Source of the DNA: an uncultured Chloroflexia bacterium
Lineage (GTDB): Bacteria > Chloroflexota > Limnocylindria > Limnocylindrales > CSP1-4
Reading direction: 5' to 3'
Length of the DNA stretch: 45,383 bases
Assembly: GCA_963766735.1 (NCBI GenBank)
Contig: CAVYBU010000020.1
Coordinates: 1-45,383 of the forward strand
In this document: one piece after another, positions 9,077 through 45,383 of the stretch
Layout: each line of letters opens with the position of its first letter
How positions within the stretch are numbered: position 1 is the stretch's first letter
Program-made: the position numbers and the translations under genes
The notes under the pieces: model-generated
Told to the model about the DNA's origin: nothing
Databases searched by the model: none
Seen by the model: only the letters and a program-made list of their open reading frames with translations

Positions 9077-9098
9077 TGGCGCGTCGCGGAGGCGTTGG
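9077..9098 (+). repeat. Weak, eroded copy of the tRNA-3'-like site
   Basis: TGGCGCGTCGCGGAGGCGTTGG versus consensus TGGCGCGCCCGGAGGGCGTCGG; intergenic, same orientation. Confidence 0.35.
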
Positions 9099-9219
9099 AT
9101 CTGGCCCCCGATCACGGAGCCCGGGCAGCGCCGCGCCTGGGCATCATCGACAAACTGGGCGAGCCCTCCTGGAGAGCGGACCCAGGCGCACGCTGGCCGG
9201 GCGCGTGGCCCTCGGCCCG

Positions 9220-10272
9220 TCACGGTCCTGCCGGAACGGTCCCTCGTGCCTCGGCGACCGCCTTGAGCACCCGGCAGGCGCGCAGGGTCACCCACCGGCT
9301 GGGCCGACCCGGCTGGTCGATGTCGACGATCATCTTGCCGGCGTAGGCATAGCGGTTGGCCCATCGACCGTGCTCGTCCTGCTGGGCGAGCAGCCAGCCG
9401 ATGGCTTGATCAAGCCGAGGATCGCCGGCGGCGCCTGCCTCGCACAGCGCCTCGAGGACCTGGAGAACGTCGGCCACGTATCCCGACGGGAAGCCGAGCT
9501 TGAACCACGAGCCGTTCGGCTTCGTATTGCCGTAGCCCCGCGGGTAGTCCGCACCTGCCGGATCCGTGCCCAGGAGGAACGCGACGCCGGCATCGAGCGC
9601 CCGTGCGACCGGCGGTGTCCGGCGAGCCGGCGGGATCCGGGCGAGGGCCAGGACGGCCTTCGTGGCGCCCCAGGCGCACGGCTCGCCCTCGTTCGCGCCG
9701 CACCGGAAGCCGGGCCCCGGCAGCGATGACCGGTAGAACCGGATCTCGCCCTCGCCGGTGATGGCGGCCGCTTGCCAGTCGATCGCGCGGCCAACCCGCT
9801 CATCGTCCAGCCACCCGAAGCCGACCAGCGCACGCACGAGGTTGCCGTTCAGGCAGTGGATGACCGTGGACGGGGCCGGACGCGCCTCACCGCTCGCGAC
9901 CGCACCGAACCCCCCGTTCGTCGTCTGCGCATGGTCCAGGAGGTAGGCGCACCCGGTCCTGATCCGGGAGTCGGCTCCATCAGCGCCGAGCTGGTCGAGG
10001 AAGACCAGCGTCCACACCGTGGACGCATATTTCGGCCCGTAGCCCGACCCGGGTCGCCCCCACCATCCGTCCGGGTCCTGGGCAGCGAGGATGGCCGCGA
10101 TCGGGTCGGTTCGCATGCCCGCGGCGCTGGCGGCGACCACGCGCGGGTCGTCCTCTGCGGCATCCAGGAGCTGGCGGAGGGCGAGGTGGCGGACGGCCGG
10201 CGCCGCCTCGTCGAGCAGCCAGGGGAGCGGGTCTCCTCGCAACGCGTCGAGCCAGCCTGACATCTGTTCCAC
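9220..10272 (-). CDS. Prenyltransferase/squalene-cyclase-repeat (alpha/alpha toroid) protein
   Basis: QW-like repeats ILAAQDPDGWW, LLDHAQTTNGGF, WLLAQQDEHGRW; C-terminal PSRWVTLRACRVLK. Confidence 0.75.
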   Translation of the reverse strand: MEQMSGWLDALRGDPLPWLLDEAAPAVRHLALRQLLDAAEDDPRVVAASAAGMRTDPIAAILAAQDPDGWWGRPGSGYGPKYASTVWTLVFLDQLGADGADSRIRTGCAYLLDHAQTTNGGFGAVASGEARPAPSTVIHCLNGNLVRALVGFGWLDDERVGRAIDWQAAAITGEGEIRFYRSSLPGPGFRCGANEGEPCAWGATKAVLALARIPPARRTPPVARALDAGVAFLLGTDPAGADYPRGYGNTKPNGSWFKLGFPSGYVADVLQVLEALCEAGAAGDPRLDQAIGWLLAQQDEHGRWANRYAYAGKMIVDIDQPGRPSRWVTLRACRVLKAVAEARGTVPAGP

Positions 10273-10373
10273 CTGGGTACAGGCCCCGCCATCAGCGGCG
10301 CCGTCCTCGTGATACTGCGTTGCGCCGAGGGCGGCCGCCTAGGGCCGTTCGATCGAAAGGCCCGAATCCGATC

Positions 10374-10408
10374 GAGTGCCCTGAACGGCGTCGAGCGTGC
10401 GCGAACGG
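10374..10408 (+). repeat. Eroded copy of the tRNA-3'-like site
   Basis: GAGTGCCCTG-AACGGCGT-CGAGCGTGC-GCGAAC keeps the spacer length, right arm (7/9) and GAAC tail. Confidence 0.45.
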
Positions 10409-10428
10409 CGTCGGGTTGTTCCGACCGG

Positions 10429-15251: not shown

Positions 15252-15277
15252 GTGCCCCCGGAGGGCGTCGTGCTGGG
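15252..15277 (+). repeat. Eroded copy of the tRNA-3'-like site
   Basis: GTGCCCCCG-GAGGGCGT-CGTGCTGGG has the same 8-bp spacer as the 31099 copy; intergenic. Confidence 0.5.
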
Positions 15278-15438
15278 TCTGGGGCGCCGCGTGCCGCTCG
15301 TGAGTTGCTGGGTCGCGTCACCGCGGAGTCAACAACGCCGGCCTCGTAGGGAGACGCCCGAGCAGGTATCGGCCCGCGCAGCCGACTTGGCGCGCCAGCG
15401 GCACCCAATCGGCCTCGGACGGGCACTTGGCCCCGCGC

Positions 15439-16891: not shown

Positions 16892-16944
16892 GACGCGAGT
16901 ATGCGCCAAGATCCTCCACGCGCCGTCCGGGGCTCTCGGAGCTC

Positions 16945-16980
16945 GTGCGCCCGGAGGGCTCGAGCGGGCCAGAACGACAC
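16945..16980 (+). repeat. Degenerate copy of the tRNA-3'-like site
   Basis: GTGCGCCCG-GAGGGCT-CGAGCGGGC-CAGAACGACAC between divergent genes. Confidence 0.7.
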
Positions 16981-17051
16981 CGCCGCGAGTGCCGCCCCGC
17001 GGAGAGCCCTCGCAGAGGCGGGTTGCTGCCTCGGGTAATCTTCGCCCCATC

Positions 17052-20000
17052 GTGAACTGTCCCAACTGCGGTACCAACAACCCGGCTGACGGCCGCTTCT
17101 GCCTGGAGTGCGGCGCGCCGCTCGGTGGGTGTCCGGCGTGCGGCGCCGTCAATCCAACCGGCGCGCGCTTCTGCGGCACCTGTGGAAAGCGGTTGCTCGA
17201 GGCACCGGACGGTGCCTCGAGCGCGACGGGCGCCTCGCCGGAGGGCGTGCCGGTGAGCGAGATCGGATCGCGGGCAACCGCGCCCGCCTCCGGGCAGGGT
17301 CCGGGCTCCGAGGGGGTCGGATCAACCGAGCGGCGCATGGTCACCGTGCTGTTCGCCGATCTTGTCGGCTTCACTGCCCTCTCGGCGAGTCGCGACGCGG
17401 AGACGGTCCGCGAGATCCAGGGTCGCTACTTCGAGCGAACGCGGGAGATCCTCGGCCGCTACGGCGGCTCCGTGGAGAAGTTCATCGGCGACGCCGTGAT
17501 GGCGCTGTGGGGCGCACCCGTCGCCCACGAGGACGACGCCGAGCGGGCCGTCCGCGCAGCCCTGGACCTCGCGGACATGGTGCCGGCCCTCGGTCGAGAG
17601 TCGGGCGTGGAGGACCTCCAGCTCCGTGTCGGAGTCATGACGGGGGAGGCAGCCGTGGTCGTCGGCGCCGAGGGTCAGGGCATGGTCACCGGCGACATGG
17701 TCAACACCGCGGCGAGGCTCCAGTCGGCTGCGGCCCCGGGAACCGTCCTGGTCGGCGCCGCAACTCGCCTCTCGACCCAGTCAGCGATCGCCTACGAGAT
17801 CGCCGGCGATCACCTGCTCAAGGGCAAGGAGGCGCCGGTCCCCGCCTGGCGTGCGGTTCGAATCCTCGCAGAACGCGGCGGCGCCCGGCGGCCCGAGGCC
17901 CTGGAGCCGCCGTTCGTCGGCCGGGCGGACGAGATCCGCTTTCTCAAGGAGCAGTTCCATGCCACGGGTCGCGAGAGACGGGCTCGGCTGATCTCGCTCG
18001 TCGGCCAGGCGGGGATCGGCAAGAGCCGGCTCGCATGGGAGCTCGAGAAGTACCTCGACGGCGTCGTTGAGACGGTCTTCTGGCACCGTGGGAGGGCACC
18101 CTCGTACGGCGAGGGCATCACCTTCTGGGCGCTCAGCGAAATGATCCGGCGGCGGGCTGGGCTGGCCGAGGGCGACGACGCCGAGACAACCCGTGCCGCG
18201 ATCGCCGCGATGGTCGCCCGGTACGTGCCGGATGTCGCGGAGCAGGCCTGGATCGAGCCGCGTCTCTACACTCTCCTCGGGGTGGGGGAGCCGGTGACCG
18301 GCGGACACGAGGAACTGTTCGCCGCGTGGCGGACCTTCTTCGAGCGACTGGCGATCGAGGGCACGGTGGCGCTCGTGATCGAGGACCTTCAATGGTCCGA
18401 CGACGGTCTGCTCGACTTCCTGGAGCACGTTATGGATTGGGCGCGGTCCAGCCCGATCTTCGTCCTGACGCTTGCCCGGCCGGAGCTGCTGGAGCGCCGG
18501 CCGGGATGGGGCGCGAACCGGCGTGGCGCGATCTCCATGCGCCTCGAACCGCTCGCGGACGACGCGATCCGAGAGCTTCTCACGGGCATCGCCCCCGCCC
18601 TCCCGGAGCCGGTCGTCCGTCGCGTCGTGGACAGAGCGGACGGCATCCCGCTCTATGCCGTCGAGACCGTCCGGATGCTCGTCTCCTCCGGGCGGCTGGT
18701 GGCGCGCGACGGCGGGCTCGTGGTCGATGGCGAGATCGCCGAGCTCGACGTCCCGCCGACCCTTCACGCGCTCGTCGCGGCCCGGCTGGATGGGCTGGCA
18801 CCGTCCGACCGGGCGCTGCTCGAGGACGCGTCGGTCCTCGGTCAGTCGTTCACGATGACGGCCCTCTCGGCGATGACCGGGGAGACGCCGGACACGCTGG
18901 CTCCACTGCTCGATTCGCTCGTGCGGCGCGAGATCCTCGCAGTCGAATCGGATCCGAAGGCGCCCACCCGTGGCCAGCATGCCTTTGTGCAGGCGCTCGT
19001 CCGCGAGGTCGCCTACTCGACGCTGTCCAGGCGCGAGCGGCGCGCCCGCCACCTCACGGCGGCCCGCTACTTCGAATCGCTGGTGGACGAGGAGCTCGCC
19101 GGGGCCGTGGCAACCCACTTCGTCGCCGCCTATCACGCCGCGCCCGACGGACCGGAGGGTGAGGCCGTGGGGACGCAGGCGCGGATCGCACTCGTTGCCA
19201 CGGCCGATCGGGCGGAACGACTTGGGGCCCTGAGCCAGGCCATCGACGCCCTTCGCGAGGCGGCCGAGGTGAGCCGCGATGCCGCCGAGCGGGGGCGCAT
19301 CCTGGAACGGCTCGGCTACCTCGCCACGGAGGCGTCATCTTCTGACGAGGCGGTCACGGCGCTCGACGATGCGATCCGCGTCTTCGAAGCCGCAGGCGAC
19401 CGGGTGGGCATCATCCGGGCGACGGCCGGGCTCATGCTCGCCTATTCGGCGGCGACTCGGATCGCGGAGGCCGTCAGCAGCGGGGACACCGTCAAGGCCG
19501 AGGGCGAGGCGCTGGTGGAGGAGGTCCTCTCGGCGGGCCCCGGCGGCGCCCGCGACCGGGCGGAAGCCGCGGCAATCTTCGCGGAGGCGATGGGCCGCGT
19601 GGAGTTCCGGGCCCAGCGCCCCGACACGTCGATCGAGTGGTGTGACCGGGCGCTCCGCATCGCAGAGCCGCTCCGCCTCGACGAGGTGATCGCGATGGCC
19701 CTCACCACGAGGGGCACCGCCCTCAGCCATGGTGGCCGGGCACGGGAGGGCGTGGCGCTCCTCGAGGGCGCCCTGCTCGACGCCCGCTCGCACGGCCAGC
19801 ACCTGGCAGCGCTTCGAGCTGCCAACAACCTCGCCTCGAACCTGACCCTGACCGACCCGCGTGCGTGCCTGGACCGGATCCGCGAGGCGCTCGCCCTCGC
19901 CCACCGGCTCGGCTTCCGCGCGTTCGACGGCTATCTTGCGGGCAACGCCGTGGGCGCGGCCGACTCGACGGGTGAATGGGACCTCGTGACCGGGTGGATC

Positions 20001-34260: not shown

Positions 34261-34315
34261 CACAGCGCCCGACGGTGGGTTGATCGGCCGTCGGGATGGT
34301 AGGCCCGGAGGTGTC

Positions 34316-34343
34316 TGGCGCGCGGAGGGCGGACGGCGAACAA
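34316..34343 (+). repeat. Degenerate copy of the tRNA-3'-like site
   Basis: TGGCGCGC--GGAGGGCGGACGGCGAACAA; left arm, GGAGGG and GAACAA tail kept, with internal deletions. Confidence 0.55.
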
Positions 34344-34467
34344 GGGACGGGCATGCGAACGCCGACCGCCAGGCTGAGGTTGAACGACCCGCCCTTGGTG
34401 CGCTTGCCGAGCCCGTGGCGTCCCGCCGTCGACGGTGTGTCGCGGATCCCGGGTGAGGTATGGACCG

Positions 34468-34700
34468 ATGCGCGAGGATGTTGAGCGGCTGATCGAGACC
34501 GCAGAGGAGCGCTGGAAGGCTGGCTGGAAGGCCGGCCCCAGTCGGCTCCGCTGGACGTTGCTGCCACCGCAGCCAGGAGATCCAGCTCCTGATCCGTCGC
34601 TGCCGGATCATGAGGGCCGGGAGGTTCGGCTGTCGTCCCTCTGGGCGGAGCGTCCGCTGCTCATCCTCTTCTGGCGCCACTTCGGCTGCTCGTGCGGTGG
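34468..34700 (+). pseudogene. Truncated AhpC/TSA (peroxiredoxin-like) gene
   Basis: GDPAPDPSLPDHEGREVRLSSLWAERPLLILFWRHFGCSCG, then family-like sequence stops. Confidence 0.75.
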
Positions 34701-35061
34701 GAACGGCCGCCCAGATCCTGTTCGACGCCCCGGACCCGATCCTCCGCTGCGACCTGCAGGCGGGCCTTGACCTGGCCCGATGCCTCTCGCCTGGAACGCT
34801 GCGCCGCGCCACGCGAAATCGGGGGGATTTGGGGCAAGGTGAACGGGGCCGGGAACGGCGCTCGCGGAATGGGCTGACTCGCCTCATTCACCCTCGTTCG
34901 ATTGACTCTACCGATCGCGGCCCGCCGAGAGGCCCGCTGCCGTGCTCTTGGCGGCGATCAGGATCGTGGCCAGCAGCCCAGCCACATCGCCCGCGTGCGC
35001 CATCGCTGACCGGCGGCAAAGAGCTGGGCACGTGCTTCCGTCCTTCGAAATGCAGATGCCG

Positions 35062-35934
35062 CTATTTGACCTTCTGGGTCGAAACGGCAACGGCGTACTT
35101 GTTGATGGCGCTTGCGGGCACATCGCGGCCGTAGATCTTCCACGGCGGAGCGGTGCTGGGCAGACCGACGCTTTGACCACAGGCCGGGACCGTGCCGTAG
35201 ATGGTCTTGGTCTGCAGCACCTTGGTGGTGCGGGCCACCCGCACCCGCACCACAATCGCCTCCTTGTAGCGGGTGACCTTGCCGATCTTGCCGTCGCTGG
35301 CCCGCTTGTAGGTGCCGCAGACGCTGACCTTGACCGATTTCTGCCATTCGACACAGGCCACCAGCTGGATGTCCGAACCCGCCCAGGTCTGGTCGAGCCA
35401 GTGGTCGTTGATGTCATGGGAGGTGAGCTTCCAACCGTCGGTCGAGCCCCACTGTTCGACCACCACCAGGGGATGGCTCTTGCCGCCGTACTTGGCGGCT
35501 TGCGGCAGGGCGGTGCCGTGGCACACCAGTTCGAGATCAAGGTCGCTGATCGGCACCGGGGTCGGCTCGGGGGTCGGGGTGGGCACCGGTGTCGGAGAGG
35601 CCGTCGGAGCCGGGGTCGGAGCCGGTGTCGGAGCGGGCGTTGGTGGGAGCGTCGGGGCCGGGGCCTCGCGGCCGGGCGGCTGAGCCGAAGCGGCCTGGTC
35701 GACCGGCGGGGGAGTGGCGGGGGCCGTACCGCAGGCGGCGAGGAGAGCCGCTATCAGCGCAAGGGAAAGGAGGGAACGAAACCTTCGCGGGGGCTCGTCG
35801 GTCACCAGCAGCGCCTCGACCTCGGCCTCGGTCGCCCGGACCACGCCGGACTCGAAGTAGAAGGACTCCAAGTGGTCACGATCCCCCGGCTCGGTCTCGA
35901 ACCACGAGAGCCGCTGCTCGCCGGCGTCAGTCAT
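35062..35934 (-). CDS. Putative lipoprotein with Pro/Thr-rich linker
   Basis: Lipobox-like ALLAAC, PTPAPTPAPTPA linker, Cys-containing C-terminal domain; true start may be GTG 35805. Confidence 0.75.
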   Translation of the reverse strand: MTDAGEQRLSWFETEPGDRDHLESFYFESGVVRATEAEVEALLVTDEPPRRFRSLLSLALIAALLAACGTAPATPPPVDQAASAQPPGREAPAPTLPPTPAPTPAPTPAPTASPTPVPTPTPEPTPVPISDLDLELVCHGTALPQAAKYGGKSHPLVVVEQWGSTDGWKLTSHDINDHWLDQTWAGSDIQLVACVEWQKSVKVSVCGTYKRASDGKIGKVTRYKEAIVVRVRVARTTKVLQTKTIYGTVPACGQSVGLPSTAPPWKIYGRDVPASAINKYAVAVSTQKVK

Positions 35935-36386
35935 CGGGCAATCCCTCACAGATGTGGACTGGGGGACGCCTCACTACTGTCTTGGCACCACTATGACGAG
36001 CCCGCCTCGCTCGCGGGCGCTCATTCCGTGCCTGACTCACCGCATCGAGTGCTCCGAAACCACCCAATCAGCGCTCCTGACCGTCAGGTCAAATCACCCT
36101 GATCTTGCACGGGGTGGCCACCCCGCTTGACGCGCGCACGTTCCCGCCGAGGCTGTTGCGGACAGCCAGGTCGGCTGGTCGTGCCGCATAGGCGATGCAG
36201 TGGTCGCAATTCAAGAAATCTGATGTCCGACTGAGCAGGCGTGACGCGGCGGAGGAACACACGAAGATATGAGCATCATCGCGATCGACTGGGCCGACTC
36301 GGGCCTCGACTGGGGCACCGAGGACGGCGCCACGCCAACTCATGGTGCCGTTCGTCCTGTGTCACCGATGTCGCGACTCAAGTCAC

Positions 36387-36425
36387 TGGCGCGTCCGGAG
36401 GGCTGTGAGCGCGCACGAACAACAC
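36387..36425 (+). repeat. tRNA-Arg-3'-like recombination-site repeat
   Basis: TGGCGCGTCCG-GAGGGCTG-TGAGCGCGC-ACGAACAACAC; upstream GTCACCGATGTCGCGACTC nearly identical to that of the 45370 copy. Confidence 0.88.
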
Positions 36426-36459
36426 CGCACCCGGGTGCAGCGTCGCGGTCTGGGGCGGG

Positions 36460-36555
36460 TCAGTCGCCCGCGGCCCGCGACCCCTGCATCATGCCGTAGG
36501 CGTTGCCGTCCGGGCCGCGGAAGTGGAACCAGCCGTAGCCGTGGATGCTCCCCGC
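36460..36555 (-). pseudogene. 3' remnant of a VOC/glyoxalase-family gene
   Basis: Manual translation GSIHGYGWFHFRGPDGNAYGMMQGSRAAGD*; no plausible start 5' of the motif, and an in-frame stop lies just beyond the adjacent repeat. Confidence 0.65.
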
Positions 36556-36582
36556 CCCGGAGGGATGCGGGCGCGCAGGAAC
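36552..36582 (+). repeat. Hybrid copy of the site (right half intact, left arm replaced)
   Basis: ccgcCCCG-GAGGGATG-CGGGCGCGC-AGGAAC. Confidence 0.88.
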
Positions 36583-36610
36583 CGAGGATCAGGCCGATCC
36601 CCAGGGCGGG

Positions 36611-37516
36611 TCACTTGGAGCGGTGGTCGGGCAATGCCGCGGCGACGAGCAGGTCACGGATCACGTCGTTGCCCTTCTGCGAGGGGTGCGTGTAGTCGCC
36701 GCCCACAAAGTCGCCGGCGGGGTCCGTTCCATCGGCTCCGTTGAACGCCCGATGAACATCCACGCAGACCGCGTCGATCGCCGCGGCCTCACCGCACAGA
36801 GCGGGGTTCCAGGTTCGGAACCAGTAAGCCTCCGCGTCAAGGAGGGCTGATCGCGTTTCCTCGTCGAACTGATCGAGGAAGCTCCAGCCCCTCCACGTGT
36901 CGTAGGGGGCGAGGACCCCGACAGCGGCGTGCGGGGCTGCTCGGCGGATCCCCGCGAACACCTCGGCGACCTGGCCACGGGTCACCGGGACCACGGAGTC
37001 GATGCATTCCCTGCTGGTCGCGGCGGCTGCCTGGATGGCATCGGTGTCGCTCGCCGACGGACCAAGTGCGGGCGGGCAGGCGTCATGGGGATCGGAGAAC
37101 GGCGGCTGATCGTTGAACGCGATCGAGATCACGACGACGTCCGCAGCCTCGAGTTGGCTCCTGAGGGTCGCGTCAGACTGCATCTGGTCGACGATGTCGA
37201 TGGCCCGCGCCCCATCGTGGCGAGACCGGTTCACCACTGTCACCGGGCCCCCGAGCTCGGTCTCCAGCGCTCGGGCGTACGAGGTCACGAACCCCGTGCA
37301 GCCCGGACAGTCATCGGCCGAGTTGAAGGGAATGGAGTCACCCATCGCGACCAGAGTGAACGCTTCTACGTCCGTCGTTGGTTCGGCGGACGGCGTCGCT
37401 GGGATGGAGGCGAACACCGTGACGTCTGGGGAGGGGCTCGACTGCGGGGCGCCGCCACAGGCGGCCACCAGCGCCGCAATGAGAGCGCCGACAATGACGA
37501 TGGGACGCCGCGTCAT
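36611..37516 (-). CDS. SGNH/GDSL hydrolase lipoprotein
   Basis: Lipobox LVAAC; LVAMGDSI (block I), IAFND (block III), DYTHPSQKG (block V). Confidence 0.9.
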   Translation of the reverse strand: MTRRPIVIVGALIAALVAACGGAPQSSPSPDVTVFASIPATPSAEPTTDVEAFTLVAMGDSIPFNSADDCPGCTGFVTSYARALETELGGPVTVVNRSRHDGARAIDIVDQMQSDATLRSQLEAADVVVISIAFNDQPPFSDPHDACPPALGPSASDTDAIQAAAATSRECIDSVVPVTRGQVAEVFAGIRRAAPHAAVGVLAPYDTWRGWSFLDQFDEETRSALLDAEAYWFRTWNPALCGEAAAIDAVCVDVHRAFNGADGTDPAGDFVGGDYTHPSQKGNDVIRDLLVAAALPDHRSK

Positions 37517-37721
37517 CCTTCGCTCCTCGGGCTCCGATGCTCGGGACCGGAGTGTACGCGGCGCGATCCTGAGCCACGGGACTACGAGGGGTTGGGGGAT
37601 GTCGTCCGTGGTGGCCGGGCCACATTCGTCATCGGAGGTCTGCAAGCCTGGCGACCAGGCCAGGACGGGTGTCTCCTCATGTTTCACAAGCCCCGCGAAC
37701 GAGAGCGTGTGGAGCGAATCG

Positions 37722-37751
37722 ACGAGGCCCCGCCTTCTGGCGGGGCCTCGT
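37722..37751. terminator. Intrinsic terminator-like hairpin
   Basis: 13-bp perfect stem ACGAGGCCCCGCC-ttct-GGCGGGGCCTCGT 18 bp past the stop of the anti-sigma-like gene. Confidence 0.7.
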
Positions 37752-37769
37752 GCGTTTGGATGGGCTGGT

Positions 37770-38405
37770 TCAGTTGGCGAACGCCGCCTCCCAGGATGCC
37801 GCCGTCCCGGTGTCGAAGTCGAGCGTGTAGCCGCAGGCGTTGATGCTCGTCCCGGCCGCCGTCACGAGGTAGCGCCCGCCGACCTCGAAGTCAGGGACCG
37901 ATCCGATGAGCGCCACACCCTCCGACGGGCTCGTGAGCGTGACGGCGCCATCCACGCCCTTCCAGCCGGTGTTGACGGCGAACGTGATCACACCGCCGTC
38001 GACGGCGGTGACGGTGCCGTCGAAGACGACGTCGAAGGTCGGCAGGATCGCCGGGTCGTACATCAGGCACGAGGCCATCCCGACGCCGGAACCGGTGTCG
38101 ATGGACGGCGCCGGGGCGTCGGGGGACTGCGTCGGGACGCTGGCGATCGCGTCCGGCTGCTGCCGCCCGAGGCCGGGGCCGACGACGACCACGAGGGCGA
38201 CGACGCCGACGAGGGCGAGCCCGCCGAGCAGGGCGAGCGGGCGGCGCGAGTGCTTGTCCGCGGGGGTGGGCTGGACGTCGGTCATGATGTGCTCCTGGAT
38301 CCTCGCCGAGACGCGGGCGAGGCTCGCGTCGGGCACGTCGTGCGCGCGGACCGGGTCGGCATCACGGAGCCGGTCGAACGGATCGGTCCCGTTCGGCATG
38401 CTCAT
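37770..38405 (-). CDS. Single-TM putative anti-sigma factor
   Basis: DPFDRLRDADPV N-terminus, one TM, ATGA overlap with the upstream ECF sigma stop. Confidence 0.7.
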   Translation of the reverse strand: MSMPNGTDPFDRLRDADPVRAHDVPDASLARVSARIQEHIMTDVQPTPADKHSRRPLALLGGLALVGVVALVVVVGPGLGRQQPDAIASVPTQSPDAPAPSIDTGSGVGMASCLMYDPAILPTFDVVFDGTVTAVDGGVITFAVNTGWKGVDGAVTLTSPSEGVALIGSVPDFEVGGRYLVTAAGTSINACGYTLDFDTGTAASWEAAFAN

Positions 38406-38998
38406 TCCGCCACTCCCTTCCATGCGACACCGGTGGTGCCCTTCACATCAGCCAATGTCCGGCTGTGACCGGGATCTTTCACGTCGCGATCCCCTGGTGC
38501 AATTCGTTCGAGCGCCGCCGCGAAGCGGGCCCGGGCCCGATGCAGGCGGATCGCCACTGCGTTGGGCGTGATGTGGAGGACCTCGGCGATCTGGTGATTG
38601 CGCAGCTCCTCCCACGCGACGAGACGCAGGATCTCCTGGTCAGCAGGCGGCAGGGAGGCGAGCGCCTCGAACGCGGGGCCATCGAGATCCTCGCCCGCGC
38701 GAAGCGGGGTTGGGGCGTCCTCGACGCGGAGGAACGCCGCCAGCCGCTGCCGCCGACCATGGCCGCGACGCTGGTTGGCGAGGACCCGCCTTGCGACGGC
38801 ATACAGCCACGGCAGTGGTTCGGCGGGGACCGCGGAGAGCCTGCGCCAGGCGACGGCGAAGGTCTCGGAGGCCGCGTCCTCGGCATCCGCGAGGGTCTCG
38901 GTGCGCCGCATCGCGTAGGCGAGGACGTCACGCTGGTGAGCCGCGACGATCGCCTCGAACCGGGCGAGCGGCTGGATGGGGATCGGGGTTTTGGTCAC
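38402..38998 (-). CDS. ECF RNA polymerase sigma-70 factor
   Basis: DAEDAASETFAVAWRR, PWLYAVARRVLANQRR, DQEILRLVAWEEL..IAEVL.ITPNAVAIRLHRARAR; start approximate. Confidence 0.92.
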   Translation of the reverse strand: MTKTPIPIQPLARFEAIVAAHQRDVLAYAMRRTETLADAEDAASETFAVAWRRLSAVPAEPLPWLYAVARRVLANQRRGHGRRQRLAAFLRVEDAPTPLRAGEDLDGPAFEALASLPPADQEILRLVAWEELRNHQIAEVLHITPNAVAIRLHRARARFAAALERIAPGDRDVKDPGHSRTLADVKGTTGVAWKGVAE

Positions 38999-39172
38999 CA
39001 CCGCGAGACGCCGAGCCGGCAGCGCCGGTTCCGCCGGGACGAGGCTGGCGCGATCGGTCGTGTGGTCGGGTCCGCCGGAGGCCGGAACCCCATGCTGCGT
39101 CGCCGGTTCGCTGGGATCGTCTCCGCGTATCGCCGGATCTGAGTCGGGTCGGGTCCTGGCAGAAGGAGTGCC

Positions 39173-39460
39173 GTGGCAATCAAGGTCATCGTCGAGCTGA
39201 AGGCCAAACCGGGGCGGCGCGACGAGCTGCGGTCGCTCATCGAGCAGCTCGCCACACGCGAGCGACCGAGCGGCTACCACGGGAGCACGTACTACGAGTC
39301 GGTGGACGACCCAGACTTGCTCATCGACATTGCGGACTGGGAGTCGCCTGAGGCACGGGCGGCCCATCTCGCGAAGGCCATGGCCGTCGGTGCCTATGGT
39401 CCGGTGCTCGAGCCGCTGGCGGGGCCCTTCCGGGCCACCGTCATCCGCCGGCTGCCCTGA
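39173..39460 (+). CDS. Antibiotic biosynthesis monooxygenase (ABM) domain protein
   Basis: VIVELKAKPGRRDEL, DDPD, WESPEARAAH; AAGGAG RBS. Confidence 0.85.
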   Translation: MAIKVIVELKAKPGRRDELRSLIEQLATRERPSGYHGSTYYESVDDPDLLIDIADWESPEARAAHLAKAMAVGAYGPVLEPLAGPFRATVIRRLP

Positions 39461-39483
39461 GCCCTGCGTCCACGCGGCGACAT

Positions 39484-39524
39484 TGGCGCGCCCGGAGGGA
39501 TTCGGGCGCGCAGGAACAACAACG
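39484..39524 (+). repeat. tRNA-Arg-3'-like recombination-site repeat (best consensus copy)
   Basis: TG-GCGCGCCCG-GAGGGATT-CGGGCGCGC-AGGAACAACAACG; 39484-39504 reverse-complements to CGAATCCCTCCGGGCGCGCCA. Confidence 0.95.
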
Positions 39525-39924
39525 TGCTTGATCTGGGCCAGGCCGTCCGGGACCGATCGCTCGGCGCGACGGCAGGGTTCCGGGCGGCGTCCGGGGCGAC
39601 CTGGGCGGGGTCCCGAGAGGCGCGGCGAAGACGCCCGAAGCCTTCCGTCATGGAGTGGGTCATCGGCTGCCTCATCTATCGGGGCCCGCCGCCGCCGCTC
39701 GTGTCCTGCCGTGGTGTTATCGAACTGACGGACATCGTGTACACATCAGGACCTGCGGTGTCGGCCCGGGACCCCTGGCACCCCATCGGTGGCTGCGTCC
39801 GCCGGGCGCAACCGTTCGCGACCAATACCCCTGGTTCACGCGATCTGAGCAGCCCACCATCCTCGAAGGAGAACGCGGTCCGGCGGCCGCGCGGACGACT
39901 GTGCCGGCCCGGAGGCGGTTCGTC

Positions 39925-40182
39925 ATGGTTGGGCAGTACCTCGACTTCCAGGCGGTTGTCGGGATCACCAAGCACATGGGCGGCCGGGGGGCCACGAGGG
40001 ATCTCCTCGAGCTCTGCCACGTGGACGAGGCGCGCGATGTCCTCGAGGTCGGGTGCGGGATCGGCGTGGGGCCGGTCGAGCTCGCGCTCAGCCGCGACTG
40101 TCGGGTGGTGGGCGTCGACCGTTCCGCGCAGATGATCGAGTGGGCGCGACGGCGCGCCCGCGAGCACGGTTGCGCCGATAGG
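39925..40182 (+). pseudogene. 5' half of a class I SAM-dependent methyltransferase
   Basis: KHMGGRGATRDLL, VLEVGCGIG, VVGVDRSAQMIEWARRRA; similarity ends at ~40182, 50 bp before the next gene. Confidence 0.8.
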
Positions 40183-40234
40183 CCTGTTGCTGCAAACTCC
40201 GCCGAACGATCGGCGCAGCGATCGGGGAGGGTGA

Positions 40235-43200
40235 ATGACCAACGCAGACGCGCCGGAGCCCGGCTCCGCCGACGGGCCTACGGAGCCTCCCGGCGTATTG
40301 CCGCCGGGCGCCCGGGCGGAGGCGGAGCTCCGGACGTTCCTGATCGCCGACATCCGCGGCTACACGACGTACACGCAGGAGAACGGCGCCGACGCGGCCG
40401 CCGAGCTCGCCGGCCGGTTCGCAGCAATCGTCCGCGAGGTCGTCACTGCCCATGACGGGTTCCTCCTCGAGTTGCGTGGCGACGAAGCGCTCGTCGTCTT
40501 CGTCCTCGCCCGTCACGCTCTCCGGGCCGCGCTCGAGCTCCAGTCCCGGTTCGCTGCCGAGCTCGCTCGCGGCGTCGGCATCGGGCTCGACGCCGGCGAG
40601 GCCATCCCGGTCGAGGGCGGCTACCGCGGCAGCGCACTGAACCTCGCCGCCCGCCTCTGCGGCCAGGCGGGACCGGGTGAGACGCTCGCCTCCGAGGCGG
40701 TCATCCACCTCGCGGCCAAGGTCGAGGGGGTCGGCTACGCGGACCCGCGGACGTACCGCCTCAAGGGCATCGAGCAGCCGATCCGGGCGATGCACATCGT
40801 GGTCCCAGAGCTGGGCTCCAAGAAGCCGATCCGCTACGGCGGTGATGGACGGCGCGCGGACCGCCGCCTGCTCGCCGCGGGCGGGGTCGGCCTGGCCGCG
40901 CTCGCCCTCGTCACCGTCGTCGTGTCGGGAGCGTTGGGCGGATCTGGCGGCGCCGCGCCGAGTCCGAGTGGCGCCGCCGCGTCAGGATCTCCCTCGCCAG
41001 TCGCCTCTCCCGAGCTCGTTGCGTACGAAGACCTCCCGGCGATCGCGTACCTGGACCCGGCGACCGGTCAAGCGACGAGCGTCAAGCAGGTGGACGAGCG
41101 GATCGAGAGTGTTGCGTTCGATGACGGCGCCTTCTGGCTGTCCTCGCCACCGTTCACCAACATCGTGGCGCTCGACCCCGCCACGCACGAGCGGATCCGC
41201 ACTGTCTCCCACCCGGTGGCAACGCCGCAGGACATCAGGGTGGCCGACGGCATCATGTGGGTGGACGACTTCGATCGGCCGCGGGTGGTCGGCGTGGACG
41301 TTGCCACGTCGAGGGTGGTGCACGACTACGACCTGCCGAGCGAGGACGGCGGCGGCACCGCCGGTCTTGCCTTCGCCGACGGTTCGCTCTGGGTGGGCAC
41401 CAGGCACTCCGAGGAGCTCTTTCGCCTGGACCCCGCGACCGGTGACGTGGAGGCCACGATCCCCGTGGCGTCTCCTGTCCTGGCCTCCGACGGCGACCTG
41501 CTCATCGCCCAGAGTTCTGGGAAGTTGCACCGGATCGACACGGCCCGGAACGTCGTCCTGTGGAGCACCGCCGAGATCACCGCCCCTGACATCTGGACGG
41601 CCGTTGCGTTCGGCGGCGGCTACATCTGGGTCAGTGACGACACGCGGGGGACCGTCACGAAGGTCGAGCCGACGACCGGAAAGGTCGTCAGGGTCTTCGA
41701 CGTCGGGGTCGGCGCCCTGCCGATGGCGGCCGCGGGGAACACGCTGTGGGTCGCCGTGCAGGACGCGGGAAGGCTGGTCGCCATCGACATGACGACGGGC
41801 GAGACGCGGGACGTCGACATCGGTCACTTCATCGGTGGCCTGGCGGCGTCGGACAGCGAGCTTCTCGTCAGCCTGGATCGCACGGGAGACGACGTGATCG
41901 CGCACCTCTCGGGCGACGTCCTCACGATCACCGCGCCTACCTTCCCGTTCCACGATCCTGACCCCGCGAGGAACGGCTCGTTCCAGGGTCGCCAGGCAGC
42001 CTACGCGACCTGTGCGGGCCTTCTGCGCTATGCGGACATGCCCGCGCCCGAAGGTTGGGCCCTCGTGCCCGAGGTGGCGGTCGCGCTGCCCGACGTCTCG
42101 GCCGACGGGACGACATACACCTTCGCCGTTCGGCCGGGCTGGAAGTTCTCGGACGGCCAGGCGCTGACGGCGGAGACCTACCGATCCTCGATCGAACGGG
42201 CACTGTCACCCGAGCTGGACAGCTGGTTCGGGCGCCGCTACGCGCCACCGTTGGTCGGCCTGCAGGCGTACCTCGACGGAACTGCGACGCACGTCGAGGG
42301 CATCGCGGTGGACGGAGAGCGGATCACCTTCACACTCGCCGAGCCAGCCGGCGACTTCCTCGACCTGCTGACGCTCCCCTGGTTCTGTCCGGTGCCCACA
42401 GGGACACCGGCTGTCCCCAACCTCGACCCTACGCCACCCTTCCCGTCAGCCGGTCCGTACTACCTGGCCGAGCACCTGTCCGCTGAGCTGGCGGTCTTCA
42501 AGCGCAACCCGAACTACGCGGGTGACCGGCCGCAACCGTTCGACGCGATCGTCTTCCGCGAGGGGATCGAGCCCGGCACGGCCGTCTCGCTCGTCGATGC
42601 GGGCGCGTACGACGCCGTTGCCGACGAAACCGGGGAGCTGAGCGTCCAAAGCGCGCTGGCCCGGACCTGGGGACCCGGCAGCGACAATGCAGTGGCGGGT
42701 GACCAGCGCTGGTTCGGAGGCGCACGACCCGCCACCGGCTTCCTCGCGCTCAACCCGGCTGACCCCTTGCTGAAGGACCCTCAGGTCCGTCGCGCGATCA
42801 GCCTGGCCCTCGACCGATCGGCGCTGGCCGCTCCTTCGAACGAGACGCCATCCGACCGGCTTCTCAGCCCGGCGGTGCGCGGATCTGACCTCTCCGATCC
42901 TCCAGTCCCGGCGCCCGACCTGGAGGCCGCCCGAGCACTGATGGCCGGCCGGACCGGGACCCTCGTGCTCGCCACCGGCCCGGAGGGTGAATGCGCGACC
43001 TGCGACGCCCGGGCCAATGCTGTGGTCGGCCAGCTGGCCGCCATCGGCCTGACCGTCGAGATCAAACGTCACCCGTGGGCGGAGCTCGGAGCAGCCATCA
43101 CGGCTCCCGACTCGACGGTGGACCTGTGGCTTGAGCCCGTCTGGGCGGACTATCCGGACCCGGTCGCCATGCTACGCGGGCTGCACGATCTGGCCGCCCT

Positions 43201-43426
43201 CCCGGAGGGCGACCTGGCCGAGCTCGATCGCCTCGAGGCCCTGGCGGGCCAGGAGCGCGTCGACGCCGCCGTGGCCCTCGCGACAAAGGTCACCGAGACC
43301 GACCACCTCGTCCTGCCGTTCGGCTACCGCGTCTACCCCATGTACCTCGGCGCCGACGTCGGCTGTGCCTTCGTGCAGCCGGCGATTGGGGCGGTCGACC
43401 TGCTGAGCTTGTGCCGGAAGCCCTGA
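40235..43426 (+). CDS. Class III nucleotide cyclase + TM + beta-propeller + family 5 solute-binding domain fusion
   Basis: FLIADIRGYT, RGDEALVVF, ALNLAARL; TM; DGSLWV/GGYIWV repeats; VSADGTTYTF, SAGPYY, KRNPNY, VRRAISLALDR. Confidence 0.9.
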   Translation: MTNADAPEPGSADGPTEPPGVLPPGARAEAELRTFLIADIRGYTTYTQENGADAAAELAGRFAAIVREVVTAHDGFLLELRGDEALVVFVLARHALRAALELQSRFAAELARGVGIGLDAGEAIPVEGGYRGSALNLAARLCGQAGPGETLASEAVIHLAAKVEGVGYADPRTYRLKGIEQPIRAMHIVVPELGSKKPIRYGGDGRRADRRLLAAGGVGLAALALVTVVVSGALGGSGGAAPSPSGAAASGSPSPVASPELVAYEDLPAIAYLDPATGQATSVKQVDERIESVAFDDGAFWLSSPPFTNIVALDPATHERIRTVSHPVATPQDIRVADGIMWVDDFDRPRVVGVDVATSRVVHDYDLPSEDGGGTAGLAFADGSLWVGTRHSEELFRLDPATGDVEATIPVASPVLASDGDLLIAQSSGKLHRIDTARNVVLWSTAEITAPDIWTAVAFGGGYIWVSDDTRGTVTKVEPTTGKVVRVFDVGVGALPMAAAGNTLWVAVQDAGRLVAIDMTTGETRDVDIGHFIGGLAASDSELLVSLDRTGDDVIAHLSGDVLTITAPTFPFHDPDPARNGSFQGRQAAYATCAGLLRYADMPAPEGWALVPEVAVALPDVSADGTTYTFAVRPGWKFSDGQALTAETYRSSIERALSPELDSWFGRRYAPPLVGLQAYLDGTATHVEGIAVDGERITFTLAEPAGDFLDLLTLPWFCPVPTGTPAVPNLDPTPPFPSAGPYYLAEHLSAELAVFKRNPNYAGDRPQPFDAIVFREGIEPGTAVSLVDAGAYDAVADETGELSVQSALARTWGPGSDNAVAGDQRWFGGARPATGFLALNPADPLLKDPQVRRAISLALDRSALAAPSNETPSDRLLSPAVRGSDLSDPPVPAPDLEAARALMAGRTGTLVLATGPEGECATCDARANAVVGQLAAIGLTVEIKRHPWAELGAAITAPDSTVDLWLEPVWADYPDPVAMLRGLHDLAALPEGDLAELDRLEALAGQERVDAAVALATKVTETDHLVLPFGYRVYPMYLGADVGCAFVQPAIGAVDLLSLCRKP

Positions 43427-43472
43427 TCGTGACGTGGCGCGCGATCGCGCGATCAGTGGTCGGGCCTGGACC

Positions 43473-43510
43473 TGGCGCGCCCGGAGGGATCCGAACACGC
43501 AGGAACAACA
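43473..43510 (+). repeat. tRNA-Arg-3'-like recombination-site repeat
   Basis: TGGCGCGCCCGGAGGGATCCGAACACGCAGGAACAACA; first 24 nt match the reverse complement of GTTCGAATCCCTCCGGGCGCGCCA with one mismatch. Confidence 0.93.
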
Positions 43511-43653
43511 CGCGTCGCACCGCGGTATCACACGGACGATGCATGACGCGCAGGAGGGACCGGTGGGCCGCGCGGCGTACCCATTGGGTTGGCGCTCACT
43601 GGCTGGGTCGACGTATGTGGTCGTCCAGTCGATGGGCCCCTTCGCGTCCGCCG

Positions 43654-44166
43654 TCAGGCCGCGTAGCCGCCCCGCAGCGCGGCCAGGATGTCCTGCCATT
43701 CCCGGTCCTGGGGATCGCCGGCGCCCCGGGCGAGGATGGTGCCGTCGCGGGTCACGACCAGTGCGTGGACCTCGTCACCACCCGGGATCGCAAGGGACCG
43801 CTGGAACCTGCCCACGTCGGTGTAGATCGTGATCGTCCGGGCGAGGACGTCCGGGTCGCCGATGCCCGACGTCATGCCGCCATCGATGAATCGCCGGACC
43901 GGCCGCCACGCGGTGGCGAGGACGGGCAGCTCCACCACGGCAACGGGCAGCGCGCCGGTGTGGCCCCGAGGCGTCGGGGGCACGCCATCCGCCACGGCAC
44001 GAGCGATCCAGCGGTCCACCCGGGCCTGGTGCCATTGTCGGAACGCCACGACGGCCAGCGTCCGTTCGGCGGGGAACTCGCGCGGGAGCGCAAGCTCCAC
44101 GCCCAGGAGCGAGCGACCGGTGACGGCAGGGAAGCGGGCGGCGGTCCCGCCGGCGTCGGCGGTCAT
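43654..44166 (-). CDS. Conserved hypothetical protein, possibly ATP10-like/thioredoxin-like
   Basis: FPAVTGRSLLG..LP.EF, VVAFRQWHQARVDRW, ELPVL, RRFIDGGM.SGI, RTITIYTD. Confidence 0.65.
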   Translation of the reverse strand: MTADAGGTAARFPAVTGRSLLGVELALPREFPAERTLAVVAFRQWHQARVDRWIARAVADGVPPTPRGHTGALPVAVVELPVLATAWRPVRRFIDGGMTSGIGDPDVLARTITIYTDVGRFQRSLAIPGGDEVHALVVTRDGTILARGAGDPQDREWQDILAALRGGYAA

Positions 44167-44191
44167 CGCGGGGCAGCCCGTCTGCCGTGCA

Positions 44192-45085
44192 TCAGGAACC
44201 CGTCCCGGGATCGGGCAGGGGATCGACCCCGGTGAGCCCAGCGGCGAGCTCCCAGAAGCGGCGGGCCCTGCCCGCATCGTGAGACTCCGGGCTGGAGTCG
44301 ATGGGCCGCCGCTCTCCAAAGAACTGGCCCCCGACGCCCACGATGGACGGATCGACGGCCATGAAGGCGAGCGAGTCCGCGGCGGCATCCACCGACGTAG
44401 CGAACGGCATGCGGGGAAGGACGACCTGCATGAACCGCCGCTTGACGCCGTGGGCGCTGGCGGAGGCGGTCGCCGGCACGAAGCCCGGACACACGGCATT
44501 CGAGGTGATCGAGCGGGGCGGCAGGCGGCGCTGGAGCTCGTAGGCCAGCCACACCACCGCGAGCTTGGAGTTCTTGTAGGCGCGGTCGGGCTGGTAGCCG
44601 CGCTCCAGCTGCGGATCGTCGAAGTCGAAGTCCACCGGGACGCCGCGCGAGTCCGGCAGGTGGAGCCGGGAGCTGACGAAGACGACGCGGGAGGAAGGCG
44701 ACCGCTCGAGCAACGGCAGCATCAGGCCCGTCGTCAGGTAGGGCGCCAGGTCGTTGACGGCCAGCGTCTCCTCGAAGCCGTCCACCGTGACCCTGCGGGT
44801 CGGGCTCTGCTGCATGATGCCGGCGACGTGGAACAGGACGTCGATGGGCGCATCGAGCTCCAGCTGGGCGTCTGCGAACGCCCGCACGGCGGCCAGTGAG
44901 GAGAGGTCCACGGCCCGCGGTTCCACGAGAGCGCCGGGATGCCGCTGCCGGATCTCCGTCGCCGCGGTCTCCGCAGCAGACGGGGTCCGGGCCGTCAGCA
45001 GGACGCGGTGGCCGGCCGCGGCGAGCTTCTCCGCGGTGGCTCTCCCGAGGCCTCGCCCGCCCCCGGTGATCAGGATGGTCGTCAT
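44192..45085 (-). CDS. SDR oxidoreductase (retinol dehydrogenase-like subgroup)
   Basis: ITGGGRGLG, DLSSLAAVR, DGFEETLAVN, YKNSK (YxxxK), NAVCPGFV. Confidence 0.93.
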   Translation of the reverse strand: MTTILITGGGRGLGRATAEKLAAAGHRVLLTARTPSAAETAATEIRQRHPGALVEPRAVDLSSLAAVRAFADAQLELDAPIDVLFHVAGIMQQSPTRRVTVDGFEETLAVNDLAPYLTTGLMLPLLERSPSSRVVFVSSRLHLPDSRGVPVDFDFDDPQLERGYQPDRAYKNSKLAVVWLAYELQRRLPPRSITSNAVCPGFVPATASASAHGVKRRFMQVVLPRMPFATSVDAAADSLAFMAVDPSIVGVGGQFFGERRPIDSSPESHDAGRARRFWELAAGLTGVDPLPDPGTGS

Positions 45086-45369
45086 CGCACGACCATCGTA
45101 GTCGCGTGTCGCGGACGCGGGGCCTCAGCCTGCATCGGCGCTCGAGGGACGTCGGTCAGTGGGAGCGTCACGAACATTCGAGTCCCGGTCGCGCGGCACC
45201 AAACCTTCGGGGTCGTCTCTTGGGTGGTGACCGCATGGGCACCGAACCGCGCGTCGCCCATGTCGCCGACTGACGCAACCGATGGCACCTTTCGCAGCGT
45301 CGCAACGGCTGGCGCGATCGCCAACCCATGGCGCCGCTGGTCAGTCACCTATGTCGCGACTCGGGACAA

Positions 45370-45383
45370 TGGCGCGCCCGGAG
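45370..45383 (-). tRNA. Possible 3' terminus of tRNA-Arg, or another repeat copy, cut by the window edge
   Basis: Reverse complement CTCCGGGCGCGCCA = part of T-stem, acceptor strand CGGGCGC, discriminator G, CCA; only 14 nt visible. Confidence 0.4.

Follow-up and report, generated by a model that had tools for sequence, protein, structure and literature searches.

The window analysed here is the entire contig C20 (CAVYBU010000020.1, 45,383 nt) of the genome of an uncultured Chloroflexia bacterium (GCA_963766735.1, hereafter G000), which is assembled in 35 contigs with a total of 3.62 Mb, a G+C content of ~70% and a completeness of 93.9%. Our preferred explanation, to which we assign a probability of roughly 60%, is that the window, from at least position 10374 to its right end, is an array of gene cassettes devoid of recombinase genes, which accumulated through successive insertions at the 3' end of a tRNA-Arg(TCG) gene, most likely by a large serine recombinase (LSR) supplied in trans. 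An earlier note on this DNA, made from the sequence alone, proposed an integron-like array of tRNA-derived sites operated by a tyrosine integrase. Its picture of cassettes, bounded by sites that originate from the tRNA, agrees with our results, and a recombinase acting in trans is likewise what we consider probable, while the enzyme class is probably different and the array does not represent a new category of element.

The boundaries of the cassettes are marked by a 38-bp motif, five clear copies of which (31099, 36387, 36549, 39484 and 43473) were found where the earlier note had placed them, all in a single orientation (+). Each of these copies consists of TGGCGCGCCCGGAGGG, three variable bases and CGGGCGCGCAGGAACAACA. 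The scan of both strands of the 3.62-Mb genome with the 38-mer of 39484, allowing for up to 10 mismatches, returned the five places on C20 and a duplicate of 43473 on contig C27 (see below), all of them in the + orientation. A profile calculated from 68 sites of other genomes, with the window's own sites excluded, identified the same five copies with genome-wide E-values of 4.5e-13 (39484), 1.6e-11 (31099), 1.1e-9 (36387), 1e-7 (43473) and 8.9e-4 (36549), the best unrelated match having an E-value of at least 0.42, and the profile of the window's five copies revealed nothing else at E < 0.02 apart from the tRNA itself. The 38-mer and the profiles were used instead of a 15-mer with 3 mismatches, since the latter performed at chance level (25 matches found, 24.8 expected). 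The motif is a local array and not a dispersed repeat. No full site was found in the viral contigs that we scanned.

The array lies directly downstream of a tRNA-Arg(TCG) gene, which is located immediately to the right of the window. The end of the window (C20:43455-45383) is nearly identical to C27:1-1929 (99.8% identity, few mismatches), and ARAGORN identified an intact tRNA-Arg(TCG) gene on the minus strand of C27, at c[1916,1992]. Thus, the motif copy listed in the earlier note at 45370 is the true 3' end of a tRNA gene that continues on C27, and the last 14 nt of this gene (45370..45383, minus strand) represent the insertion point of the array; as only these 14 nt are inside, ARAGORN reports 0 genes for the window alone. 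The 12 kb beyond the tRNA encode an M23 peptidase, an HD protein, a CAP protein, a WYL regulator and an ABC transporter. At the opposite end, C20:1-7809 corresponds to the end of contig C21 (99.2% identity). C27 begins 18 nt ahead of site 43473 and C21 ends 15 nt short of the stop codon of an MFS gene, and the overlaps at both window ends probably reflect two close strains assembled together. The M28 peptidase gene (3800-5461), which was sought as the far chromosomal flank, has no match in five genomes of the same genus.

The derivation of the sites from the tRNA-Arg 3' end, also claimed in the earlier note, is evident from the first 16–21 bases of every clear site, which are the reverse complement of the acceptor 3' strand and the T stem of the tRNA. 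The remainder is not tRNA sequence, and constitutes a cassette-borne arm (consensus CGTCGGGCGCGCAGGAACAACA), which is an inverted repeat of the tRNA-like half. The site as a whole is an imperfect 22-2-22 palindrome with GG in the centre; in the family consensus including the left flank TGTTGTTC, 18 out of 22 positions are symmetric about GG by our own count. TGTTGTTC on the left mirrors GAACAACA on the right, which extends the palindrome to 46 bp, and this version was found in ~10 cassette sites of the genomes and in 102 stretches of metagenome contigs. The identity with the tRNA usually stops at position 16, i.e. at the centre of the site, and just to the right of the centre there is a variable triplet, which differs between the sites of one array (ATT, CGT, CCT, CTT, CAT). 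In two relatives (G426 and G077) the tRNA exhibits C instead of G at position 5, and the same C is present in 6 of their 7 array sites and in no other listed site; the host-specific base remains on the left half. If the crossover occurs at GG, the bases to its left should match the tRNA of the host, and the cassette should bring along the variable triplet and the arm.

The possibility that the arm is a copy of the tRNA 5' end with its upstream flank was considered and dropped, because merely 9–13 nt agree, which is as much as the requirement for an inverted repeat accounts for. A second conserved class of arms (..GCCAACC..; ..ATCTGAACACGCTCTACCAACCATCGTGAT or ..CGGGCGCGCGTTAGCAACCTACGAGAT) follows the 16 tRNA bases in the same arrays and was seen in seven of the loci (L006, L008, L014, L025, L028, L029, L034) and in many metagenome contigs (L089-L164). 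The recurrent left flank atgtcgcgactcatgaca often adjoins the tRNA itself.

The junction pattern, defined as the tRNA half plus the arm with at most 3 mismatches, was detected in 39 of 401 genomes of the family, belonging to 13 of its 49 genera, while the reversed pattern, used as a control, gave 0 matches in 401; the tRNA is the same across the 13 genera. In a class-level draw of genomes the pattern was found in 35 out of 263 members of the family and in none of 137 members of four other families (the reversed control matched twice). We fetched 34 loci from 23 relatives, together with C27 of G000. All 100 sites with E <= 0.01 (tRNA ends included) in 32 fetched loci from 24 genomes are co-oriented within their locus, and so are 113 out of 113 sites in 80 metagenome contigs (80 of the sites seeded by the search, 33 independent of it). 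In 14 of the 23 fetched relatives the array abuts a tRNA-Arg(TCG) called by ARAGORN; in one (G214) the contig ends inside the tRNA end, exactly as the window does, and in seven there is no tRNA inside the fetched stretch. One site with the perfect pattern (G209:C4:257880) is found in the opposite orientation, 80 kb from the array of that genome and on the same contig.

The site could also be regarded as a structural or regulatory repeat (REP-like, i.e. akin to repetitive extragenic palindromes, a terminator hairpin or a tRNA-like minihelix) rather than a recombination site: it can be folded into a 9-bp stem with an 8-nt loop, ending with ..GCCA on the tRNA strand, and it sits between genes. 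The distribution described above speaks against such a repeat, which in the case of REP elements or bacterial interspersed mosaic elements (BIME) should be present in many copies on both strands throughout the genome; the genome-wide scan leaves the idea of a local array standing, as the site has no copies elsewhere on either strand, a single orientation and a constant position downstream of the same tRNA. Rfam, searched with the whole window at gathering thresholds, returned 0 matches, the gene strands on the two sides of the sites are mixed, the left half co-varies with the host tRNA, and the synteny between close relatives breaks exactly at the sites. A mere repeat is therefore extremely improbable.

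The breaks of synteny are best seen in the comparison with G214 (locus L014), a genome of the same genus, which also bears on the eroded copies of the motif claimed in the earlier note. The blocks shared with G214 stop exactly at 10383, 16975 and 34323, each within a claimed eroded copy (10374, 16944 and 34316, respectively). G214 exhibits a single eroded site at the empty place of a 2.4-kb insertion in the window (10384-12812), a weak site at the place matching 16944, and a better-kept site with an arm of the second class at the place matching 34316. The copy at 15252 contains an exact 14-mer of the family consensus and is located in a 0.67-kb stretch missing from G214. The fifth claimed copy, at 9077, has no support from synteny. 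None of the five is significant according to the profiles: 16944 scored 8.8 bits (E = 8 genome-wide, 0.1 in the window) and the other four are not listed at E <= 100. The content and the order of units differ between the two genomes, as the earlier note would have them do in relatives: in place of 16976-27765 of the window G214 carries different DNA with two sites, and its cassette with the RCK-RyR and TIR proteins is one unit away from the tRNA, while in the window four further units lie in between. None of the three outcomes that the earlier note named as refuting its idea, namely a dispersed repeat, no matching tRNA nearby and a fixed gene order in relatives, was observed.

The sites with E <= 0.01 in 24 genomes delimit 68 units of 59–7487 bp (median 2354 bp), most of which carry 1–2 genes. 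Clustering of proteins from all loci revealed identical cassettes with identical ends at different places. A three-gene cassette (BTAD-TPR protein, a protein without assignment and a CMD protein) adjoins the tRNA in G137 and is several units away from it in G291 and G156, while a 1-kb GNAT cassette occurs in three genomes, twice within one array; recurrence of this kind was also seen for cassettes with a single cyclase, hydrolase or AlkZ gene and for a Phd/YafQ-like pair. The homology between copies of a cassette begins right at the arm of the site. The proteins of shared cassettes are 92–98% identical between genera, while core genes beyond the tRNA are only 65–73% identical between genera and 66–88% within a genus, and this gap indicates a recent transfer of cassettes between lineages.

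These recurrences also bear on the explanation that every unit arrived with its own recombinase, which was deleted later, so that the array would consist of decayed tandem islands. Tandem integration followed by decay has been documented in the accounts of tycheposon islands (bioRxiv 10.1101/2020.12.28.424599) and of the accretion of cis-mobilizable elements (CIMEs; PMC5704250), the cassettes of the window do contain truncated genes (a methyltransferase remnant, a weak AhpC remnant and a 124-bp unit), and remnants of LSR genes are present in G046:C84 and in the metagenome contig L107. The 68 units include only two intact LSR genes (in G006 and G194) and no remnant of a tyrosine integrase, single-gene units of 1 kb are frequent, and cassettes without a recombinase, both ends of which are conserved, turn up in several genera and at varying positions. 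The latter suggests that the recombinase-less unit is the very thing that spread, and we consider decay of once autonomous islands unlikely.

Parts of 35500-45383 are present in 20 of 21 listed runs, which belong to six studies. In four runs, which were compared as assembled contigs placed at 92% likeness, site 31099 is reached from differing left-hand sequences (seven contigs of run X1 and three of run X3). One contig of X1 joins 43472 back to 39484 via 18 letters common to both sites (depth 4.8, shorter side 69), and it possibly represents a circle of the cassette 39484-43472. Joints with a side shorter than 30 letters (36382->39484, 31126->38769 and others), which possibly come from other organisms, were not counted as evidence, and no claim is based on stretches that lack cover.

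As to the enzyme, the statement of the earlier note that neither the window nor its units encode an integrase, transposase, relaxase or phage gene was upheld. The six-frame search of the genome with PF00589 and PF00239 gave no match on C20 or C27, and the comparison of the open reading frames (ORFs) of the window with Pfam and PHROGs revealed no recombinase, transposase, relaxase or phage function. An alternative candidate is a tyrosine integrase whose gene lies outside the array, be it of a phage or of the type found in integrative and conjugative elements (ICEs), or the host XerC/XerD, with a 6–8-bp overlap inside the site. Most elements targeting tRNA genes use such enzymes (according to PMC4383910). 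A 9-8-9 inverted repeat is another possible reading of the site, and every genome searched contains at least two tyrosine recombinases. G000 itself has a tyrosine integrase gene in a classical island of 6.5 kb, inserted at tRNA-Pro(GGG). In this island (C2:350185-356751) the integrase gene directly follows the tRNA and a 17-nt repeat of the tRNA end is found at 356735, 6.5 kb away, so that the integrase belongs to a separate element; for this reason the third tyrosine recombinase of G000 (C2:350416-350913) was dropped as a candidate for the trans-acting enzyme.

No match to PF00589 was found in or near the arrays of 19 out of 20 relatives, i.e. in 20 out of 21 arrays when the window is included. 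The exception, G224, has a sub-threshold integrase match in a 542-aa ORF, which follows a ~50-nt fragment of tRNA-Arg(TCG) (L026 14837-16754, on G224:C8). This is a junction of another type, and by its sequence it appears to be a different, classical element at the same tRNA, with a deeper crossover. Two genomes with large arrays (G259 and G291, with 6 sites each at E <= 0.01, the tRNA end excluded) contain just two tyrosine recombinases each, both with Xer-like scores. The variable triplet would fall inside the overlap, which in the case of tyrosine recombinases normally requires identity, and the site does not appear to resemble dif, the 28-bp XerC/XerD site of Xer-dependent modules (IMEX, pdif modules); all its copies in the window are co-oriented. 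As the 21 arrays examined neither contain nor adjoin a tyrosine integrase (apart from the one sub-threshold match), the tyrosine integrase favoured in the earlier note is not our choice, and we regard it as quite improbable.

The features of the site itself, i.e. the 22-2-22 palindrome, the break of the tRNA identity at the centre and the variable triplet, appear to fit a serine recombinase better. The sites of serine integrases comprise inverted recombinase-binding motifs around a central dinucleotide, which sets the polarity (reviewed in PMC13586533), and the consensus with the flank TGTTGTTC exhibits the same layout. Among the relatives, G006 has three serine recombinases, of which one, encoded in the array region (C1:1746551-1748143), is an LSR (Resolvase + Recombinase + Zn_ribbon_recom), while in G194 an LSR gene at the tRNA-proximal end of the array (C59:384518-386011) reads into tRNA-Arg(TCG). 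Homologs of the LSR are present in 76 of the 401 genomes of the family (this tally includes two unpublished genomes, G178 and G232, on which no other claim rests). In 14 of 18 other fetched LSR loci the 3' end of the gene likewise runs into the 3' end of a tRNA, which is tRNA-Glu(TTC) in ten cases and tRNA-Arg(CCT) in four. The LSR element of G258 has at its borders a 16-nt repeat of the end of its tRNA, the identity of which breaks off at the position corresponding to that in the arrays, and the arms of the G194 element form an inverted repeat (18 of 24 positions) about the same GG (positions 15-16 of the site). In the metagenome contig L107, an LSR gene that is truncated at the N-terminus reads through TGTTGTTC into tRNA-Arg(TCG), and a cassette-type arm is located at a distance of 3 kb. 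When named genome records were searched with the LSR of G006, only two close relatives were obtained, while the other 31 loci correspond to distant serine recombinases from other phyla.

The LSR elements of G194 (L011 2363 to L018 1043) and G006 (L044, at tRNA-Arg(CCT)) have a common backbone, comprising an AAA_25 protein with 79% identity between the elements, three small proteins, one of which weakly matches HTH or small-terminase-like proteins, and the recombinase. The G194 element encodes in addition a methylase-Mrr fusion, and the element in the G006 array a primase-like protein and an ImmA/HTH pair. Judging from their gene content, the LSR elements look like small replicative or satellite-like elements.

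According to the mechanism that we propose, an incoming circular cassette would recombine with the end of the tRNA gene, and the cassette's own copy of the 16 bases would restore the tRNA, while the older cassettes would be pushed away from the gene, to a region where their sites decay. The enzyme would act in trans, and it would most likely be an LSR of the family whose gene reads into tRNA 3' ends on small elements, making a two-base crossover at the central GG. Since no such enzyme was found in G000, the array of this genome would probably stay inactive until a helper element enters.

Several findings weigh against this mechanism. First, the model of serine recombinases identifies no such enzyme in G000 (93.9% complete), nor in G401, G259 and G291, which all are genomes with large arrays. 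The association is weak, as LSR homologs are present in 12 of the 39 genomes with arrays versus 64 of the 362 others (our own count, for which the genomes are related and the draws are assumed to be identical), and only in 3 of these 12 the LSR gene is in or beside the array, one of the three being a fragment; no site could be recognised after the LSR gene of G006, and the LSR of L107 lacks the catalytic N-terminus. Second, the outer left motif TGTTGTTC is missing from most junctions, including all five in the window, hence in these cases the symmetry is confined to the inner 9 bp, and the second class of arms has no place in the proposed scheme. Third, serine integrases normally recombine attP with attB only, and the reverse reaction needs a directionality factor (reviewed in PMC13586533); half-palindromic sites do not fit readily into such a scheme. 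Finally, the back-joint in X1, found among the assembled contigs of one run placed at 92%, could be a tandem duplication or come from another strain, and the eroded sites are supported by one comparator genome, G214, with ~90% identity in the shared blocks.

In the tRNA-proximal part of the window the individual units are delimited by the clear sites (all +). The site nearest to the tRNA (43473..43510) comprises 16 tRNA-like nucleotides and the arm ...CGAACACGCAGGAACAACA; the cassette between it and the tRNA (43511..45369) encodes a 170-aa protein without a family match and a short-chain dehydrogenase, both on the minus strand. The next site (39484..39521) is identical to the consensus used for the scan and precedes a cassette (39522..43472) with a methyltransferase remnant and a 1063-aa protein, in which a weak cyclase-like N-terminus, PQQ-like repeats and SBP_bac_5 were identified. 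The site at 36549..36586 has a degenerate left half; its cassette (36587..39483) encodes an SGNH/GDSL hydrolase, a 211-aa protein without a family match, an ECF sigma factor and an ABM monooxygenase. A contig of run X3 has a site directly after 37664 (side 32), which suggests that this unit is a fusion of two cassettes. The site at 36387..36424 is preceded by a second conserved flank (..atgtcgcgactcaagtcac) and is separated from the former by a unit of 124 bp (36425..36548), evidently a truncated cassette. Upstream of it, the eroded site at 34316..34350 (+, with small deletions) is followed by a cassette (34351..36386) with a weak remnant of the N-terminus of AhpC and a gene for a 290-aa protein without a family match (minus strand). 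The site at 31099..31136 exhibits the commonest spacer, CGT, and its cassette (31137..34315) encodes an RCK(TrkA-N)-RyR protein and a TIR-domain protein. Genes were called in the window with our own codon-usage script, and those of the cassettes are found on both strands.

The tRNA-distal part is delimited by the eroded sites only (all +). The one at 16944..16979 precedes a large stretch (16980..31098) without a recognisable internal site, which encodes a zinc-ribbon/cyclase/AAA/TPR protein, a copy of a 194-aa gene, a TPR protein, a SCO4226-like protein, a PEP-utilising enzyme, ferrochelatase and VanW. The site at 15252..15289, with the exact 14-mer CCCGGAGGGCGTCG, is probable and lies beside a GNAT gene; that at 10374..10411 forms the left edge of the 2.4-kb insertion relative to G214, and 9077..9114 is a site-like stretch without support from either the profile or synteny. 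The 194-aa gene, which has no family match, is covered by a 618-bp direct repeat with 99.2% identity (14120-14737 and 20705-21321), one copy of which is syntenic with G214, while the other is inside a stretch missing from that genome.

Most of the cargo named in the earlier note was reproduced, i.e. RCK-RyR, TIR, SGNH, ECF sigma, ABM, the short-chain dehydrogenase and the methyltransferase and weak AhpC remnants, while the VOC remnant, the lipoprotein and the anti-sigma factor were not; the ORFs 35062-35934 and 37770-38405 have no Pfam match. The zinc-ribbon/nucleotide-cyclase/AAA/TPR protein (17052-20690) has matches to Pycsar-cyclase-like proteins (E = 3e-18) and the TIR protein (33133-34260) weak matches to ThsB-like proteins. 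PADLOC reported weak TIR and cyclase matches in the window and nothing more, and PHROGs assigned no phage function to its unannotated ORFs. On the basis of these similarities, the genes at 17052-20690, 33133-34260 and 40235-43426 are possible defence or signalling genes.

Other tRNA genes of G000 exhibit related arrangements. A second array of the same build is present on C9 (9913, 13951, 32440) and C24:6707, where co-oriented copies of TGGCGCGCCCGACAGG are followed by an inverted-repeat arm of the ..GTTGGCAACC.. class; its sites match the 3' end of tRNA-Arg(CCG) (C19:126901-126976), which is located near the end of C19. tRNA-Leu(CAA) (C7:290801-292127) and tRNA-His(GTG) (C30:241520-243546) are each followed by one exact 17-nt repeat of the 3' end, 1.2 kb and 1.9 kb downstream, respectively, and these may be single small units of the same kind.

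The arrays resemble several known systems. Staphylococcal and enterococcal cassette chromosomes (SCC, psiSCC, SCC composite islands and ECC) are tandem elements inserted at the 3' end of one conserved gene (rlmH), which is preserved, with short direct repeats that include inverted repeats; the enzymes are LSRs, and many elements, some of 2.6 kb, contain no recombinase genes (as described in PMC9430635 and PMC6222049). The same arrangement of tandem elements at the 3' end of one gene, with direct repeats and without a recombinase in some of them, is found here. Unlike in SCC, the target is a tRNA gene and not rlmH, the host is an uncultured lineage, the units are smaller (median 2.4 kb), and most arrays, as well as the whole genomes that carry them, hold no serine recombinase. 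The likeness concerns the layout; candidate counterparts of the Ccr-type LSRs, which move the elements of SCC, are the LSR genes in the arrays of G006 and G194 and the fragments in G046 and L107, with none in G000. In the tycheposons of Prochlorococcus, successive integrations at a tRNA push the older elements inward and partial tRNA copies separate the elements; an integrase of their own is a defining feature (a tyrosine recombinase in 910 out of 937, an LSR in a minority), and the islands hold fragmented integrases (bioRxiv 10.1101/2020.12.28.424599). In both systems a copied part of the tRNA 3' end marks the distal boundary of each element, and the AAA_25 and primase-like genes of the LSR elements recall those tycheposons that, according to the same source, carry replication genes. 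Unlike in tycheposons, the unit is a recombinase-less cassette with a conserved 22-nt arm, and fragments of integrases are nearly absent; more generally, none of the units of the window encodes an integrase, in contrast to those tRNA-targeting elements that bring their own. CIMEs retain attL and attR, have no integration genes, and form tandems with incoming elements at the 3' end of a gene, from which they can be mobilised by a helper; they are decay products of ICEs or of integrative and mobilizable elements (IMEs), usually one per site (according to PMC5704250). In contrast, up to 6 sites per array were found here (E <= 0.01; more with weaker matches), the units look like primary cargo cassettes common to several genera, and no conjugation genes were seen.

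The comparison with integrons, made in the earlier note, is a fair functional analogy, while no defining feature of an integron was found. In common with integrons, small co-oriented cassettes are arranged in order, with one entry point at one end and no recombinase in the cassettes, and toxin-antitoxin cassettes (Phd/YafQ-like) are present. Arrays without an integrase exist among integrons as well, as clusters of attC sites lacking integron integrases (CALINs). Unlike in integrons, there is no IntI-type tyrosine recombinase by the insertion site. attC sites are variable imperfect inverted repeats of roughly 60–140 bp with hairpin structure, whereas the sites described here are variants of one conserved 38–46-bp sequence tied to the tRNA. 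Integron cassettes are mostly promoterless and lie in one orientation behind a common promoter, whereas the genes of the cassettes described here face both ways and therefore must rely on promoters inside the cassettes. The closest known systems are SCC composite islands and tycheposon islands, CIME accretion being another close analogue, and what sets the arrays apart is the combination of a tRNA target, small regular cassettes without a recombinase but with a conserved half-site, their sharing across genera, and arrays in genomes devoid of the recombinase. Our literature search found no description of such arrays, which is not proof that there is none, and the supplements on tycheposons may list tRNA elements with serine recombinases.

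More broadly, the arrays may represent a serine-recombinase counterpart of the integron, a tentative idea with somewhat less than an even chance of being correct. In such a system tRNA-Arg(TCG) would be a dedicated capture site for self-expressed circles of 1–3 genes without a recombinase, each carrying only a ~22-nt half-site and the last 16 bases of the tRNA, which would pass among genera and be stacked by a rare LSR borne by small helper elements that resemble cassettes. The second class of arms and the parallel array at tRNA-Arg(CCG) suggest that there are several such platforms per genome.

The collecting of cassettes in the manner of integrons has so far been tied to one family of tyrosine recombinases, and the stacking of cassettes by serine recombinases to rlmH in staphylococci and enterococci. 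Here, the same logic is found at a tRNA gene in a widespread uncultured lineage of sediment and aquatic samples, with no recombinase anywhere in the genome for most arrays. If the prediction of a trans-acting serine recombinase is true, it would open a second route to cassette platforms, independent of the first, it would offer a simple criterion by which to recognise such platforms (the 3' end of a tRNA with its inverted repeat directly behind it), and it would define a set of natural serine integrases with short, defined targets at tRNA ends. The cargo of the arrays includes TIR, STAND and cyclase proteins, a toxin-antitoxin pair, a methylase-endonuclease fusion, sigma factors and redox enzymes, and thus for these bacteria the arrays are likely to be a store of adaptive and defence genes.

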